DNA of 64,000 bases from Escherichia coli (lineage in GTDB: Bacteria > Pseudomonadota > Gammaproteobacteria > Enterobacterales > Enterobacteriaceae): assembly GCF_003334785.1 (NCBI RefSeq), contig NZ_QOWV01000001.1; one strand, 5' to 3'. The translations under genes and the position numbers were made by a program. Shown here piece after piece: positions 27,092 to 34,713 of the stretch (position 1 is its first letter; each line of letters starts with the position of its first letter). Below the pieces are notes generated by a model. It was given only the letters and a program-made list of their open reading frames with translations. It was not told the DNA's origin and did no database searches.

Positions 27092-28042
27092 ATGAGTAAA
27101 CTTGATACTTTTATCCAACATGCTGTAAACGCTGTTCCGGTCAGTGGCACATCTTTGATCTCCTCTCTGTATGGTGATTCGCTTTCCCATCGTGGTGGTG
27201 AAATCTGGTTGGGTAGTCTGGCTGCTTTGCTGGAAGGGCTGGGATTTGGTGAGCGTTTCGTGCGCACCGCTTTGTTTCGTCTTAATAAAGAAGGCTGGCT
27301 GGATGTTTCCCGCATCGGGCGACGCAGTTTCTATAGCCTCAGTGATAAAGGCTTGCGCCTGACGCGACGGGCAGAAAGTAAAATTTATCGCGCAGAGCAA
27401 CCTGCATGGGATGGTAAATGGCTCCTGTTGCTCTCGGAAGGTTTAGATAAATCAACGCTGGCTGATGTCAAAAAGCAGTTGATCTGGCAAGGTTTTGGCG
27501 CACTGGCACCCAGCCTGATGGCATCGCCGTCGCAAAAACTGGCCGATGTACAGACACTTTTGCATGAAGCGGGTGTGGCGGATAACGTGATTTGTTTTGA
27601 AGCGCAAATACCACTGGCGCTTTCTCGCGCAGCACTGCGTGCCAGAGTAGAAGAGTGCTGGCATTTAACTGAACAAAATGCCATGTACGAAACCTTTATT
27701 CAGTCATTCCGCCCGCTGGTGCCGCTTTTAAAAGAGGCGGCAGACGAGTTAACCCCGGAGCGGGCATTTCATATTCAGCTTTTACTGATCCATTTTTATC
27801 GCCGTGTCGTCCTTAAAGACCCATTGTTGCCGGAGGAGTTGCTTCCGGCACACTGGGCAGGGCATACGGCGCGTCAGCTGTGTATCAACATTTATCAGCG
27901 CGTAGCGCCTGCTGCTTTAGCGTTCGTTAGTGAAAAAGGTGAAACCTCGGTCGGTGAACTGCCTGCGCCGGGAAGCCTGTATTTTCAACGTTTTGGCGGC
28001 TTGAATATTGAACAGGAGGCGTTATGCCAATTTATCAGATAG
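27092..28042 (+). CDS. paaX: PaaX transcriptional repressor of the paa operon (phenylacetyl-CoA responsive), 316 aa
   Basis: 316-aa [36 protein letters not shown]...; conserved position after paaK. Confidence 0.9.
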
Positions 28043-28614
28043 ACGGTCTGACTCCGGTTGTGCCAGAAGAGAGTTTTGTCCATCCGACAGCGGTATTGAT
28101 CGGCGATGTTATTCTCGGCAAGGGCGTTTACGTTGGGCCAAATGCCAGCCTGCGTGGCGATTTTGGTCGTATCGTGGTGAAAGATGGCGCGAACATTCAG
28201 GATAATTGCGTTATGCACGGTTTTCCCGAGCAGGATACTGTTGTAGGAGAAGATGGACATATTGGTCATAGCGCTATCCTTCACGGCTGCATTATCCGCC
28301 GCAATGCATTAGTGGGAATGAACGCGGTAGTGATGGACGGTGCGGTGATTGGCGAGAACAGCATTGTTGGTGCATCCGCATTTGTGAAAGCCAAAGCAGA
28401 AATGCCAGCTAATTACCTGATTGTCGGCAGCCCGGCGAAAGCGATTCGTGAACTCAGTGAGCAGGAGTTGGCATGGAAAAAGCAGGGTACGCATGAGTAC
28501 CAGGTGCTGGTGACACGCTGTAAGCAGACGTTACATCAAGTCGAGCCATTGCGGGAAATTGAACCTGGCAGGAAACGCCTGGTATTTGATGAGAATCTGC
28601 GACCGAAACAGTAA
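28024..28614 (+). CDS. paaY: PaaY, hexapeptide-repeat (gamma-carbonic-anhydrase-like) thioesterase, 196 aa
   Basis: Left-handed beta-helix hexapeptide repeats; overlaps paaX 3' end by 19 bp. Confidence 0.9.
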
Positions 28615-28647
28615 CAGATGTAAAATTATTTTGTCCCTTTAATTATA

Positions 28648-28685
28648 AAGCAGAGTTATGTTTAAGCTCTGCTTTATTTATTTGA
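28648..28685 (+). terminator. Rho-independent terminator after paaY
   Basis: AAAGCAGAG-N10-CTCTGCTTT stem followed by TATTTATTT. Confidence 0.55.
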
Positions 28686-28944
28686 GTATTAATTCATACC
28701 GTTTTTTCATCATATAATTATTTATAATGAGAATGTGGTTTTAATTTGTAATTTATATTATATACACAATTTATATATTTCATGGTCTTTTTTTATTCAC
28801 CTGAATTATAATTGTGAATTATAGGAAAGTATGTTTGATTAGATAATAATCTACTGGCAATATTGGATGTCTTCTATGTTTTAAATAACTAATTGGTCGG
28901 GTTAGTGCATCCGGCTTTCTTTATATTCGCCAGAAGGATTTATT

Positions 28945-31900
28945 ATGCAAAGGAAAACTCTATTGTCGGCCTGTATTGCATTAGCTCTGAGTGGTCAGGG
29001 TTGGGCGGCAGATATCACAGAGGTAGAAACCACCACAGGTGAAAAGAAAAATACCAATGTGACTTGTCCGGCAGACCCAGGAAAACTCAGTCCGGAAGAG
29101 CTTAAACGCTTACCCTCTGAATGCTCTCCTTTAGTCGAACAAAACCTGATGCCATGGCTTTCCACAGGCGCTGCTGCGTTAATCACGGCCTTAGCCGTAG
29201 TGGAACTAAACGACGATGATGATCATCATCATCGCAACAATTCTCCACTCCCACCGACACCCCCTGATGATGAATCAGACGACACTCCAGTTCCCCCAAC
29301 TCCTGGCGGAGATGAGATAATACCGGACGATCCGGATGATACGCCTACACCTCCCAAACCGGTTTCGTTTAATAATGACGTTATTCTCGATAAAACAGAA
29401 AAAACGTTAACTATTCGCGATTCAGTTTTTACTTATACCGAGAATGCTGACGGGACTATATCTCTGCAAGATAGCAATGGTCGTAAGGCAACGATTAATC
29501 TTTGGCAGATTGATGAAGCGAATAACACTGTTGCCCTTGAAGGGGTGAGCGCAGATGGCGCAACGAAGTGGCAATATAATCACAACGGTGAGCTTGTTAT
29601 TACGGGTGATAATGCCACAGTAAACAACAATGGCAAAACCACCGTTGACGGTAAAGATTCCACCGGTACGGAAATCAACGGTAATAACGGGAAAGTGATT
29701 CAGGACGGCGATCTGGATGTCAGCGGCGGCGGTCACGGTATTGATATCACCGGTGACAGCGCGACGGTGGATAACAAGGGCACCATGACCGTCACCGATC
29801 CGGAGTCCATGGGTATCCAGATCGACGGTGACAAGGCCATCGTCAATAACGAAGGCGAGAGCACCATCACCAACGGTGGCACCGGCACCCAGATTAATGG
29901 TGATGACGCCACGGCAAACAACAACGGCAAAACCACCGTTGACGGCAAGGATTCCACCGGTACGGAAATCAACGGTAATAACGGAAAAGTTATTCAGGAC
30001 GGCGATCTGGATGTCAGCGGCGGCGGTCACGGTATTGATATCACCGGCGACAGCGCAACGGTGGATAACAAGGGCACCATGACCGTCACCGATCCGGAGT
30101 CCATCGGTATCCAGATTGACGGCGACCAGGCCATCGTCAATAACGAAGGCGAGAGCACTATCACCAATGGCGGCACCGGCACTCAGATCAACGGTAACGA
30201 CGCCACCGCGAATAACAGTGGAAAAACCACTGTTGATGGAAAAGATTCCACGGGTACCAAAATCGCGGGCAATATCGGCATTGTAAATCTGGATGGTAGC
30301 CTGACTGTTACAGGCGGTGCGCATGGTGTTGAGAACATTGGTGACAACGGCACGGTTAACAACAAAGGAGATATTGTTGTTTCCGATACTGGATCGATTG
30401 GCGTGCTCATCAACGGTGAGGGGGCAACAGTATCCAATACGGGTGATGTTAACGTTAGCAATGAAGCGACAGGGTTCAGCATCACAACCAACAGTGGGAA
30501 GGTTTCGCTGGCAGGCAGTATGCAGGTTGGCGATTTCTCGACCGGGGTAGATCTTAATGGCAACAATAACAGCGTGACGCTGGCGGCAAAAGATCTAAAA
30601 GTGGTCGGGCAGAAAGCGACGGGCATAAACGTTTCTGGCGATGCGAATACAGTGAATATCACTGGTAACGTTCTGGTTGATAAGGATAAAACCGCAGACA
30701 ATGCGGCGGAATATTTCTTCGATCCATCCGTGGGTATCAACGTTTACGGCAGTGATAATAACGTGACGCTGGATGGAAAGTTAACTGTTGTATCAGACAG
30801 TGAGGTTACTTCTCGTCAGAGTAATTTATTTGATGGCAGCGCAGAGAAAACGTCAGGTCTGGTTGTGATTGGCGATGGCAATACCGTTAATATGAATGGT
30901 GGACTTGAACTGATTGGAGAGAAAAACGCGCTTGCAGATGGGTCGCAGGTTACTTCCTTGCGCACAGGATATAGTTATACCAGCGTTATTGTCGTTAGTG
31001 GTGAGTCGTCGGTATATCTGAATGGAGATACGACAATCAGCGGAGAATTCCCTCTGGGGTTTGCCGGGGTTATTCGGGTACAGGATAAAGCTTTGCTGGA
31101 AATTGGCAGTGGCGCTACGCTAACAATGCAGGATATTGACAGTTTTGAACATCATGGGACAAGAACCCCAGAACTTACTTATGCTGATTCCGGTGCGAAA
31201 ATTGTTAATAAAGGTACTGTTGAAATTCAGAATTTAGGTTTTGCTTTTGTTACTGGTGAAAATACAACAGGTATAAATAGTGGCACGATCTCGTTATTAC
31301 AAAATGGTAAAGATCCGGCACCGTCTCCCATTGTTTTACTGGCTACTAACGGAGGGAGCGCCACTAATGCAGGTACGATCACAGGTAAAGTGACGGAACA
31401 ACATAGCGTATTTAACAAGTATTCAACGGGCACATCGAATTCATTTATTTTTAATAACGATGTCAGTAGCATAACAGGGTTAGTCGCTCAATCGAATAGC
31501 ACAATTATCAATACTGACAGCGGCATCATTGATTTGTATGGTCGTGGTAGTGTCGGCATGCTTGCTATAGCAGATTCAACAGCAGAAAATCAGGGTAAAA
31601 TTACACTGGATTCTATGTGGGTAGATGCAAATGACACTACCGCAATGCGAGATATAGCTAGCAACAGCGCCATTGACTTCGGTACAGGTGTGGGAGTTGG
31701 TACTGATAGTTATAGTGGTGCAGGGAAAAATGCAACAGCAATTAACCAATTGGGCGGTGTTATAACTATTTATAACGCCGGCGCAGGTATGGCGGCCTAT
31801 GGCGCCAGCAATACAGTTATTAACCAGGGGACGATTAACCTCGAAAAAAATGGTAATTATGACGATAGTCTGGCAGCAAATACTCTGGTAGGGATGGCTG

Positions 31901-34713
31901 TTTATGAGCATGGTACTGCTATCAACGACCAGACGGGTGTTATCAATATCAATGTTGGTACTGGTCAGGCGTTTTATAACGATGGCACAGGAACAATTGT
32001 TAACTATGGTACAATCTGCACTTTCGGCGTGTGCCAATCGGGGAATGAGTACAATAATACAGATGATTTCACCTCACTGATCTATACCGGTGGCGATACG
32101 ATTACACGAAGCGGAGAAACTGTAACGCTAAATAAATCTGCTGCTGTGACTGATAAGCTGGCTGGGAATGTTGTTAATAGCGGAACGCTTTCCGGTGATC
32201 AAATTACGGTATCAAGCGGTCTTCTGGAAAATACCAGCGGTGGCATCATCAATAACTTAGTAAAACTTGACAAGGGTGCCGTCATTAAAAATGCCGGGGT
32301 GATGACGAATAACGTCGATGTTAGCGGTGGAATCCTCAATAATGCCGGAGAAATGACTGCGCAAATTACCATGAATGCTGGTGCTGATAGTTCGTTAGTG
32401 AACAACACCGGAACCATCAATAAAATCGTGCAGAACGCGGGGGTATTCAATAATAGTGGCAGTGTAACAGGGCGGATGATGTCGGCTGGCGGGGTCTTTA
32501 ATAATCAAACTGACGGGGCGATTATGAGAGGTGCTGCGCTGACAGGTACTGCAGTGGCAAATAACGAAGGAACCTGGAACCTCGGAAGTAGTAGTGAGGG
32601 TAACAACACCGGGATGCTGGAAGTTAATAATAATTCAGCTTTCAATAACCGCGGCGAGTTTATTCTTGATAACGACAAGAATGCTGTGCACATCAACCAG
32701 TCCGGTACGCTTTATAATACCGGTCACATGAACATCAGTAATTCTTCCCACAACGGAGCCGTTAATATGTGGGGCGGAAATGGTCGTTTTATCAATGACG
32801 GAACGATTGATGTTTCTGCGAAGTCACTGGTAGTCAGCGCTAATAATGCCGGCGATCAGAATGCCTTCTTCTGGAACCAGGATAACGGGGTCATCAACTT
32901 CGATCACGACAGCGCCAGTGCCGTGAAAGTCACCCACAGCAACTTTATTGCCCAGAATGACGGCATCATGAACATCAGCGGCACCGGTGCTGTGGCTATG
33001 GAAGGTGATAAGAACGCGCAGCTGGTTAACAATGGCACCATCAACCTCGGTACCGCAGGCACTACTGACACGGGTATGATCGGTATGCAACTCGATGCCA
33101 ACGCCACGGCGGATGCGGTAATCGAAAACAACGGCACCATCAATATCTTCGCCAATGACTCGTTTGCATTTAGCGTACTGGGTACAGTAGGTCATGTGGT
33201 TAACAACGGCACGGTGGTGATTGCCGATGGGGTTACGGGTTCTGGACTGATCAAGCAGGGCGACAGCATCAATGTTGAAGGTATGAACGGTAACAACGGT
33301 AATAGCAGCGAAGTGCATTATGGCGACTATACGTTGCCGGATGTGCCGAAGCCCAATACGGTTAGTGTAACGTCGGGAAGTGATGAGGCTGGTGGCAGCA
33401 TGAACAACCTCAACGGCTATGTCGTCGGTACCAACGTTAACGGCAGCGCCGGGAAGCTGAAGGTTAACAATGCCAGCATGAACGGCGTGGAGATTAACAC
33501 GGGCTTTACCGCTGGTACGGCAGACACCACTGTGAGTTTTGATAACGTAGTGGAAGGTAGCAACCTGACCGACGCTGACGCCATCACCTCAACGTCCGTG
33601 GTATGGACTGCCAAAGGCAGCACCGATGCCAGCGGTAACGTTGACGTCACCATGAGCAAAAATGCCTACACCGATGTGGCAACAGATGCCTCGGTGAATG
33701 ACATCGCGAAAGCACTGGATGCGGGTTACACCAACAACGAACTGTTTACCAGCCTGAACGTCGGCACGACTGCTGAACTGAACAGTGCTCTGAAACAGGT
33801 CAGCGGTAGCCAGGCGACCACGGTATTCCGCGAAGCGCGCGTGTTAAGCAACCGCTTTAGTATGCTGGCAGATGCCGCGCCGAAAGTGGGTAACGGTCTG
33901 GCGTTCAACGTTGTCGCGAAAGGCGATCCGCGTGCCGAGTTAGGTAATAATACCGAATACGACATGCTGGCATTGCGTAAAACTATCGACCTGAGCGAAA
34001 GCCAGACGATGAGTCTGGAGTACGGTATCGCTCGTCTCGATGGTGATGGTGCGCAGAAAGCGGGTGATAATGGCGTTACAGGCGGTTATAGCCAGTTTTT
34101 TGGCCTGAAACATCAGATGTCGTTCGATAACGGCATGAACTGGAATAACGCCTTGCGTTACGACGTTCACAACCTTGACAGCAGCCGCTCGATTGCATTT
34201 GGCAACACGAACAAAACGGCTGATACCGACGTGAAACAGCAGTACCTGGAGTTCCGCAGCGAAGGGGCGAAGACTTTCGAACCGAGCGAAGGACTGAAGG
34301 TTACGCCATATGCGGGTGTAAAACTGCGTCACACACTGGAAGGTGGCTATCAGGAGCGCAATGCCGGAGACTTTAACCTGAATATGAACAGTGGCAGCGA
34401 AACGGCGGTGGACAGCATCGTCGGGCTGAAACTGGACTACGCAGGTAAAGACGGCTGGAGCGCTAGCGCTACGCTGGAAGGCGGGCCGAACCTGAGCTAC
34501 GCGAAGAGCCAGCGTACGGCAAGCCTGGCAGGCGCAGGCAGTCAGCACTTTAACGTCGATGACGGTCAGAAGGGCGGCGGCATCAATAGCCTGACAAGCG
34601 TCGGCGTGAAGTACAGCAGCAAAGAAAGTTCGCTGAATCTGGATGCGTACAACTGGAAAGAGGATGGCATCAGCGATAAAGGCGTGATGCTGAACTTCAA
34701 GAAAACGTTCTAA
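28945..34713 (+). CDS. ydbA: Giant autotransporter (type Va secretion) with Gly/Asn/Thr-rich beta-helical passenger and C-terminal beta-barrel, 1922 aa; appears intact
   Basis: Single uninterrupted 5.8-kb ORF; N-terminal signal-like segment MQRKTLLSACIALALSGQGWA; Pro/Thr/Asp-rich linker; C-terminal approx 280 aa with alternating amphipathic strands ending ...GVMLNFKKTF (terminal aromatic, typical of OM beta-barrels). Gene symbol by synteny with the E. coli ydbA locus. Confidence 0.85.
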   Translation: MQRKTLLSACIALALSGQGWAADITEVETTTGEKKNTNVTCPADPGKLSPEELKRLPSECSPLVEQNLMPWLSTGAAALITALAVVELNDDDDHHHRNNSPLPPTPPDDESDDTPVPPTPGGDEIIPDDPDDTPTPPKPVSFNNDVILDKTEKTLTIRDSVFTYTENADGTISLQDSNGRKATINLWQIDEANNTVALEGVSADGATKWQYNHNGELVITGDNATVNNNGKTTVDGKDSTGTEINGNNGKVIQDGDLDVSGGGHGIDITGDSATVDNKGTMTVTDPESMGIQIDGDKAIVNNEGESTITNGGTGTQINGDDATANNNGKTTVDGKDSTGTEINGNNGKVIQDGDLDVSGGGHGIDITGDSATVDNKGTMTVTDPESIGIQIDGDQAIVNNEGESTITNGGTGTQINGNDATANNSGKTTVDGKDSTGTKIAGNIGIVNLDGSLTVTGGAHGVENIGDNGTVNNKGDIVVSDTGSIGVLINGEGATVSNTGDVNVSNEATGFSITTNSGKVSLAGSMQVGDFSTGVDLNGNNNSVTLAAKDLKVVGQKATGINVSGDANTVNITGNVLVDKDKTADNAAEYFFDPSVGINVYGSDNNVTLDGKLTVVSDSEVTSRQSNLFDGSAEKTSGLVVIGDGNTVNMNGGLELIGEKNALADGSQVTSLRTGYSYTSVIVVSGESSVYLNGDTTISGEFPLGFAGVIRVQDKALLEIGSGATLTMQDIDSFEHHGTRTPELTYADSGAKIVNKGTVEIQNLGFAFVTGENTTGINSGTISLLQNGKDPAPSPIVLLATNGGSATNAGTITGKVTEQHSVFNKYSTGTSNSFIFNNDVSSITGLVAQSNSTIINTDSGIIDLYGRGSVGMLAIADSTAENQGKITLDSMWVDANDTTAMRDIASNSAIDFGTGVGVGTDSYSGAGKNATAINQLGGVITIYNAGAGMAAYGASNTVINQGTINLEKNGNYDDSLAANTLVGMAVYEHGTAINDQTGVININVGTGQAFYNDGTGTIVNYGTICTFGVCQSGNEYNNTDDFTSLIYTGGDTITRSGETVTLNKSAAVTDKLAGNVVNSGTLSGDQITVSSGLLENTSGGIINNLVKLDKGAVIKNAGVMTNNVDVSGGILNNAGEMTAQITMNAGADSSLVNNTGTINKIVQNAGVFNNSGSVTGRMMSAGGVFNNQTDGAIMRGAALTGTAVANNEGTWNLGSSSEGNNTGMLEVNNNSAFNNRGEFILDNDKNAVHINQSGTLYNTGHMNISNSSHNGAVNMWGGNGRFINDGTIDVSAKSLVVSANNAGDQNAFFWNQDNGVINFDHDSASAVKVTHSNFIAQNDGIMNISGTGAVAMEGDKNAQLVNNGTINLGTAGTTDTGMIGMQLDANATADAVIENNGTINIFANDSFAFSVLGTVGHVVNNGTVVIADGVTGSGLIKQGDSINVEGMNGNNGNSSEVHYGDYTLPDVPKPNTVSVTSGSDEAGGSMNNLNGYVVGTNVNGSAGKLKVNNASMNGVEINTGFTAGTADTTVSFDNVVEGSNLTDADAITSTSVVWTAKGSTDASGNVDVTMSKNAYTDVATDASVNDIAKALDAGYTNNELFTSLNVGTTAELNSALKQVSGSQATTVFREARVLSNRFSMLADAAPKVGNGLAFNVVAKGDPRAELGNNTEYDMLALRKTIDLSESQTMSLEYGIARLDGDGAQKAGDNGVTGGYSQFFGLKHQMSFDNGMNWNNALRYDVHNLDSSRSIAFGNTNKTADTDVKQQYLEFRSEGAKTFEPSEGLKVTPYAGVKLRHTLEGGYQERNAGDFNLNMNSGSETAVDSIVGLKLDYAGKDGWSASATLEGGPNLSYAKSQRTASLAGAGSQHFNVDDGQKGGGINSLTSVGVKYSSKESSLNLDAYNWKEDGISDKGVMLNFKKTF
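29617..30260 (+). repeat. In-frame tandem repeat inside ydbA: two full 294-bp (98-aa) units plus a diverging partial third
   Basis: Unit beginning ...NNGKTTVDGKDSTGTEINGNNGKVIQDGDLDVSGGGHGIDITGDSATVDNKGTMTVTDPES(M/I)GIQIDGD... recurs with period 294 bp (e.g. GGCAAAACC at 29632 and 29926); copies differ at roughly 20 mostly synonymous positions by eye. Confidence 0.85.

Follow-up and report, generated by a model that had tools for sequence, protein, structure and literature searches.

The region analyzed here is the intergenic gap between paaY and ydbA of Escherichia coli (NCBI RefSeq assembly GCF_003334785.1, contig NZ_QOWV01000001.1), examined in the context of a contiguous stretch of 64,000 nucleotides, hereinafter the window. 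The bounds of the gap are exact, with the paaY open reading frame (ORF) ending at 28614 and the ydbA ORF starting at 28945, and the features assigned to the gap and its surroundings are listed in Table 1. In the preliminary description of this DNA, the gap was treated as the leader of ydbA. The tract does adjoin ydbA, but the label captures only a part of its content because the tract is composite and also holds the paaY terminator and a small gene, ynbG, that had been overlooked. We suggest that the annotation should likewise be composite, comprising the terminator, ynbG, and the ydbA promoter together with the 5' UTR.

Table 1. Features of the paaY-ydbA intergenic region and its surroundings (window coordinates)
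Feature	Coordinates	Strand	Evidence
Sigma-54 binding site inside paaY (IS16)	28468..28484	+	Exact motif match (Bonocora et al. 2015)
Published promoter island paaY/ynbG/ydbA_1, reported to be H-NS-occupied	28590..28974	.	PMC3661553 and offset mapping
AT-rich intergenic tract	28615..28944	.	25.2% GC; 100% identical to K-12; 34 alleles with 23-31% GC
Intrinsic terminator of paaY / paa operon	28645..28688	+	11-13 bp stem at 28645-28677, then TTTATTTATTTG; terminator scan
Variable AT core with -10-like hexamers dense on both strands	28700..28835	.	Hexamer counts, allele alignment
ynbG, 21-codon ORF, translation MKYINCVYNINYKLKPHSHYK	28718..28783	-	K-12 RefSeq 66-nt CDS WP_010723099.1
Candidate ynbG expression signals: AGGTGA 28803-28798, TATAAT 28823-28818 and 28810-28805	28798..28823	-	Sequence reading, TATAAT count
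Conserved proximal block, candidate ydbA core promoter / operator	28836..28894	+	Contains GATAAT 28842-28847; conserved across 34 alleles
Leader hairpin, 8-bp stem 28895-28902 / 28909-28916, then T-rich TTCTTTATATT	28895..28927	+	Terminator-like hit
ydbA Shine-Dalgarno AGAAGGA 28932-28938 and ATG 28945-28947	28932..28947	+	Invariant in all non-disrupted alleles
ydbA, intact 1922-aa BigA-like autotransporter gene, 49.1% GC	28945..34713	+	ORF; NCBIfam auto_BigA

With 25.2% GC over 330 bp, against 49.8% in the window, the gap has the extended AT-richness, far under the genome GC content, that is characteristic of H-NS-silenced promoters. Of all 330-bp stretches in the 64 kb, the one beginning at 28616 has the lowest GC content, with just 0.02% of the sliding 330-bp windows equally low; in 200-bp windows at 28600-28899, the GC content falls to 22-22.5%, with both flanks at approximately 50%. 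The window has 27 non-ORF gaps that are 80 bp or longer (mean GC 43.2%, sd 7.2%; runner-up 32.0%), among which the tract ranks lowest, 2.5 sd under the 26 remaining gaps. The next most AT-rich non-ORF gaps are located at 17196-17479 (32.0% GC) and 6397-6603 (32.4% GC). The tract contains runs of six T at 28702 and seven T at 28788, 46 TpA steps, and 13 W-runs with a minimum length of 8 nt. Both flanking genes have an ordinary composition (ydbA, 49.1% GC and 51.7% GC3; paaY, 50.6% GC), the GC content of ydbA being indistinguishable from those of paaY and ydbC. The windowed GC analysis confirms the original observation that the gap is conspicuously AT-rich, rich in A/T tracts, and unlike the flanking genes. 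Given that ydbA itself contains 49.1% GC, the tract is best described as a sharply bounded AT trough rather than an AT-rich foreign island.

Over the 801 bp that surround the tract, the sequence is 100% identical to E. coli K-12 (e.g., BW25113), and the same DNA has been described in K-12. Panyukov and Ozoline (2013; PMC3661553, Table 1 and Table S1) listed 78 promoter islands of MG1655, identified with PlatProm, one of which, 1463061_385 (U00096.2 1463061-1463445, 385 bp), is denoted 'paaY(+)/ynbG(-)/ydbA_1(+)'. The offset between the U00096.2 and window coordinates (1434471) was verified via the sigma-54 motif TTGGCATGGAAAAAGCA; because the site reported at 1462947 (Bonocora 2015) corresponds to the IS16 position in Table 1, this island can be mapped to 28590-28974 and encompasses the entire tract. 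The mark 'K' assigned to the island in Table 1 of PMC3661553 denotes H-NS binding in the chromatin immunoprecipitation (ChIP) data of Kahramanoglou (MG1655) and Oshima (W3110) but not in those of Grainger. The earlier proposal that the tract is an H-NS target thus agrees with published ChIP occupancy in two of the three data sets and is left without a counterpart in the Grainger data. The authors of PMC3661553 report that H-NS covers up to 90% of the summed length of the islands, and that promoter islands are bound by RNA polymerase and form open complexes but yield mostly oligonucleotides of 9-14 nt and almost no full-length transcripts.

The tract is accordingly one of the 78 loci in the group of K-12 promoter islands delineated by Shavkunov, Panyukov and Ozoline (e.g., appY, yjgL and fimB-fimE-fimA), and shares with them a length of at least 300 bp, very high AT content, crowding of promoter-like sites on two strands, reported H-NS binding, and the proximity of a variably present gene. 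No essential difference sets it apart from these loci; ydbA is a pseudogene in the K-12 reference and intact in the window strain. That the AT tract in the ydbA leader is an H-NS-bound promoter island is already known, from the literature of 2009-2013, and the idea of silencing is not new given that H-NS occupancy of the identical K-12 DNA has been published. Beyond confirmation, the present results matter little for what looks like a textbook-style platform for xenogeneic silencing; the additions are modest: the tract is resolved into its several parts, the terminator gains support from compensatory changes, ynbG proves to be restricted to one lineage, and the tract is recognized as part of a ydbA indel module.

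The allelic variation of the leader was surveyed by scanning metagenomes with an invariant 28-mer, which yielded 117 loci with 34 distinct leaders. All 34 distinct leaders have GC contents between 23 and 31% despite a central divergence of more than 20%, with identity down to about 78%. Given that the GC content is stable while the leader identity falls, the constraint appears to act on composition and not on the sequence itself. We excluded three contigs from metagenomes (L032, L056, and L090) as chimeric assemblies. These contigs join the E. coli leader, inside the AT core, to unrelated DNA and apparently represent assembly chimeras seeded by low-complexity sequence; the alternative that they carry insertions in the leader was rejected since the upstream proteins are unrelated and no insertion sequence (IS) element was matched. 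The unrelated DNA on these contigs has a Firmicutes-like or Gram-positive-like look, which we take as its presumable affinity.

The 5' portion of the tract contains a Rho-independent terminator with a stable, conserved stem-loop followed by a U-rich tract, which is interrupted (UUUAUUUAUUUG). The predicted fold has a free energy of -17.5 kcal/mol (z = -5.0, none of 200 shuffles being as stable), and the minus-strand fold yields z = -5.9; the terminator is possibly bidirectional, also serving the minus-strand ynbG. In the divergent paaY-bearing allele L013, three base pairs of the stem show compensatory double changes (A-U to C-G, G-C to A-U, and C-G to A-U), a level that is reached by one of 500 shuffles, and in the alleles with the paa genes deleted, the stem gathers mismatches. 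The compensation in L013 together with the decay in the paa-less alleles indicates that this stem is the terminator of the paa operon. A scan of 28000-29500 against Rfam at E <= 1 produced no matches.

The central part of the tract evolves fast, with a fraction of invariant columns of only 0.37-0.63, and is crowded with promoter-like sites. By a consensus-based proxy, the 330 bp contain 14 promoter-like hexamer pairs (42/kb compared to 6/kb in the window), the highest density in the 64 kb, so that the tract displays the exceptional density over at least 300 bp by which promoter islands are recognized, although the total count matches the expectation from composition (12.7 +/- 4.1 under a Markov-1 model). 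Perfect TATAAT hexamers are enriched beyond that level: 7 of the 16 copies in the window are located here, compared to 2.3 expected (P about 0.011), and some of these are divergent, at 28805-28823(-) and 28807(+). These sites could be sufficient for silencing if, as in the model of the Ozoline group, the tract functions as a trap for RNA polymerase or causes promoter interference without H-NS, so that collisions or abortive products silence ydbA. We regard this as a possible, albeit minor, contender. The 14 promoter-like sites with perfect TATAAT on both strands, the short oligonucleotides produced from promoter islands (PMC3661553), and the activating mutations in the appY island, which removed surplus promoters and left H-NS binding unchanged (PMC7054387), all agree with this model. 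The promoter-like density, however, is what composition predicts, and polymerase trapping is compatible with H-NS silencing rather than exclusive of it.

In K-12-like strains, the core also encodes the product of WP_010723099.1, YnbG (YNBG_ECOLI, b4674). Translation of this protein was reportedly shown by Hemm et al. (2008), as cited by Goodall (2018), and ynbG (b4674, 21 aa) belongs with the small proteins of that set (ynbG, yobI, yqcG, and others). Unlike conserved functional small proteins, it is confined to a single haplotype group of the E. coli leader. Of the 34 distinct leader alleles, 6 retain an intact ORF, all from the K-12 haplotype group (five encode the K-12 peptide and one, L093, a version with a single substitution), so that the ORF is not preserved at orthologous loci as a conserved gene would be. 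Twenty of the 34 alleles lack the start codon, and in most of the others it has moved, is deleted or is followed by a frameshift: alleles of the 93% identity class retain it but change frame behind it, those of the 96% class carry it one base away, and L013 has lost it. Upstream of the ORF, the TATAAT hexamer at 28805-28810 is invariant across the alleles.

The same gene has been called 'essential' in two transposon-sequencing studies, because neither of two independent, saturated libraries has a Tn5 insertion in it (Goodall 2018; Choe 2022, supplementary table). Given that ynbG is missing from most E. coli leader alleles, this call is very probably an artefact. Choe et al. (2022) showed that regions coated with H-NS and StpA are protected from Tn5 and are the source of most false 'essential' calls, and DNA coated by nucleoid proteins has likewise been found to be Tn5-protected by Kimura (2016; PMC4999555). 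The cold spot in ynbG therefore most likely reflects nucleoid-protein protection or the bias of Tn5 against AT-rich DNA, not essentiality.

The 3' third of the tract shows the opposite trend to the core, with an invariant fraction of 0.73-0.77 in the A1 alignment of the proximal block, which is conserved across the 34 alleles, and with 50 nt ending in AGAAGGATTTATTATG that are invariant. The leader hairpin follows the proximal block, with its T-run about 30 nt before the ydbA ATG. Conceivably, ydbA could be controlled mainly at the transcript level if the hairpin and T-run at 28895-28927 attenuate transcription and CUUUCU at 28916-28921 acts as an anti-Shine-Dalgarno sequence, so that the two would halt or mask the majority of ydbA mRNAs. 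The terminator-like score is in line with such control, as are the retention of the outer stem in 34 of 34 alleles, including L013 and L038 with their loop insertions of 23-25 nt, the pairing of the stem in 100% of the cells with three one-sided changes that preserve pairing, and the invariance of the following 50 nt. There are, however, no compensatory double changes, the stability is unexceptional (z = +0.52), Rfam provides no match, and in the K-12 allele the stem consists of just 8 bp, three of them G-U, with an interrupted T-run. Given the lack of covariation and of excess stability, we rejected the hairpin as a structured RNA, its role as an attenuator is a mere possibility, and transcript-level control is quite unlikely.

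Each of the two loop insertions, at L013:2446-2470 and at the homologous site in L038 (window 28903-28908), contains a sequence reminiscent of a transposon end. The L038 insertion holds TGTAGATTCAA, the first 11 nt of both terminal inverted repeats of IS30 (K-12 copy), and the L013 insertion holds the same motif with one extra base (TGTAGAGTTCAA). Judging by this similarity, these insertions may be a footprint left by IS30 or may resemble its target sequence.

The product of ydbA resembles the Salmonella BigA adhesin (bigA): the C-terminal 800 residues of YdbA match the NCBIfam auto_BigA model, and RefSeq names the N-terminal region 'BigA/YdbA N-terminal beta-barrel domain'. The score of 1076 bits, however, is far under the equivalog cutoff of 3400. 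A search of the genome contigs with the YdbA N-terminus retrieved one E. coli locus only. The ydbA gene contains a 294-bp unit repeated 2.2 times at 29605-30264, and the alleles of the gene are highly divergent and vary widely in length among strains (5.0, 5.8, and 8.5 kb).

Of 5426 complete genomes of E. coli, 2436 carry the tract, in allele classes whose identity ranges between about 78% and at least 99%. In the genomes that lack ydbA and retain paaY, the region from 28616 to about 34704 is missing as one block, so that 28615 joins about 34705. In the empty state (L006:3216-3235), GTCCTGATGCTGGAC is followed by the last ydbA codons, GTTCTAA. Given that this remnant resembles the last codons of ydbA, the ydbA-less state appears to be a deletion, derived rather than ancestral. 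In the genomes without the paa genes, the tract, beginning near 28630, lies between ydbL and a ydbA allele. The tract segregates with ydbA, not with paaY, and is part of a ydbA indel module.

This pattern of joint gain and loss, the divergence and length variation of the ydbA alleles, and the association of the island with foreign genes by two of the five predictors in PMC3661553 are all that would be expected if the AT-richness were simply the composition of the donor of a horizontally acquired ydbA island. This explanation is largely refuted, and in our view highly improbable, because the AT-rich part is the non-coding 330 bp only, whereas the ydbA coding sequence shows no AT bias, including at third codon positions. 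A more speculative scenario is that the tract is a co-inherited 'silencing cassette', maintained at 23-31% GC by selection on composition, the promoter-dense core of which gave birth de novo to the translated micro-gene ynbG in the K-12-like lineage only. We consider this scenario unlikely; if true, promoter islands would not only silence genes but also serve as nurseries of new small proteins.

The preliminary description further posited that the DNA of the tract is curved. Curvature calculated under the Bolshoy-Trifonov wedge model averages 8.0 deg/turn in the tract compared to the window median of 6.4. This ranks the tract among the highest 16% of 330-bp windows but does not exceed the value for composition-matched shuffles (8.9 +/- 1.1). 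Curvature has two local peaks, at 28702 and 28786, which coincide with the T6 and T7 runs. AA/TT dinucleotides in the tract show no periodicity around 10.5 bp, i.e., no phasing of A-tracts. Intrinsic curvature and phased A-tracts, which are classical although non-obligatory features of H-NS-silenced promoters, were thus not found, and the description of the tract as curved is not supported. As for the high-affinity H-NS motif TCGATAAATT, the tract contains one site with at most two mismatches (28768) and five TCGATAAATT-like sites with at most three, or 15/kb compared to 9/kb in the window.

Taken together with the published data, these observations make it probable that the tract is the known E. 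coli promoter island of the ydbA module and takes part in H-NS-based silencing of ydbA. Under this model, H-NS, with StpA, would nucleate on the AT patch of 330 bp that includes the ydbA promoter region, polymerize along it, and occlude or trap RNA polymerase at overlapping promoter-like sites on both strands, so that ydbA would remain nearly untranscribed in the laboratory until some anti-silencing signal acts. In the predicted layout, the paa terminator at the 5' end would be followed by the fast-evolving AT-rich center, which would merely happen to encode the 21-aa ynbG in K-12-like strains, and by the conserved 3' third with the putative ydbA promoter, 5' UTR, and ribosome-binding site. 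The data presented here or in the cited papers establish the composition of the tract, its identity with the published island, the reported occupancy, its joint inheritance with ydbA, the terminator, and the confinement of ynbG to one lineage; from these we infer both that H-NS occupancy keeps ydbA off and where the ydbA transcription start site is located. We count the top promoter-like density and the TATAAT excess as support for silencing, as well as the zero Tn5 insertions in ynbG since nucleoid-protein-coated DNA behaves in this way.

Several observations run against H-NS-based silencing. Given that the patch is approximately 330 bp long and the downstream coding sequence has 49% GC, any H-NS filament would be short. 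The anti-AT bias of Tn5 could equally explain the transposon cold spot. In addition, occupancy is absent from the Grainger data, curvature is ordinary, there is a single TCGATAAATT site with at most two mismatches, and the promoter-like density is at the level expected from composition. Some of these observations would be accounted for if the tract were ordinary intergenic DNA in which the terminator, the small divergent ynbG and a weak promoter together make up an AT-rich gap by chance, under relaxed selection and AT-biased mutation and with no silencing. The terminator, ynbG, the Shine-Dalgarno sequence, and the hairpin together account for about half of the tract, and the fast evolution of the center, together with curvature and promoter density at the compositional level, is equally in accord with such an origin. 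This explanation is nevertheless unlikely: the GC content of the tract stands apart from those of the 26 other gaps and stays low in all alleles despite their divergence, H-NS occupancy has been published, and perfect -10 hexamers are enriched beyond composition.

The H-NS-based silencing model places ydbA alongside other cryptic surface adhesins of E. coli, both autotransporters and chaperone-usher fimbriae. In hns mutants, upaC, ehaG/upaG, yeeJ and the cryptic fimbrial operons are released from repression. Like the H-NS-silenced adhesin promoters, the ydbA locus combines AT-rich upstream DNA with a large, variably present adhesin gene that is silent in the laboratory, and H-NS occupancy is reported; it differs from them in that the coding sequence is not AT-rich and in that the literature searched contains no report of ydbA derepression, or other expression data for ydbA, in hns mutants. 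The supplements of Fuqua and Wagner (2024) include no fragment from the paaY/ynbG/ydbA island. In an rpoZ mutant, the RNA polymerase occupancy of ydbA increased 29.8-fold, among the largest gains, and the ydbA transcript went up 7.7 +/- 6.2-fold (Yamamoto et al. 2018). This rise suggests that ydbA is normally quiet, yet can be transcribed, or derepressed.

Silencing was also originally put forward as the reason why such autotransporters are cryptic in the laboratory. In K-12, IS2 and IS30 have broken ydbA up into a pseudogene, and these interruptions come before any silencing as the cause of crypticity. In the window strain, ydbA is intact under a leader that is 100% K-12-like, which indicates a strain other than K-12 or one free of these IS elements, and the K-12 IS2 site is likewise free of interruption in at least 828 complete genomes of E. 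coli. Strains with an intact ydbA and an unaltered leader are the right background in which to address H-NS control of this adhesin.

Disruptions of the leader itself are found in about 34 of the 2436 genomes. In strain 300081, an IS1 copy sits 3 nt upstream of the ydbA ATG (L007:745, window ~28942), strain PM4 has two IS1 copies in or near the tract, and another truncation occurs at about 28937. These disruptions fit published ideas that IS elements target H-NS-bound AT-rich DNA (PMC11335895). At the other end of the locus, the sigma-54 site within paaY faces ydbA from 464 bp upstream of the ydbA ATG, and a transcript from this site toward ydbA would have to get past the paaY terminator and then cross the AT tract.
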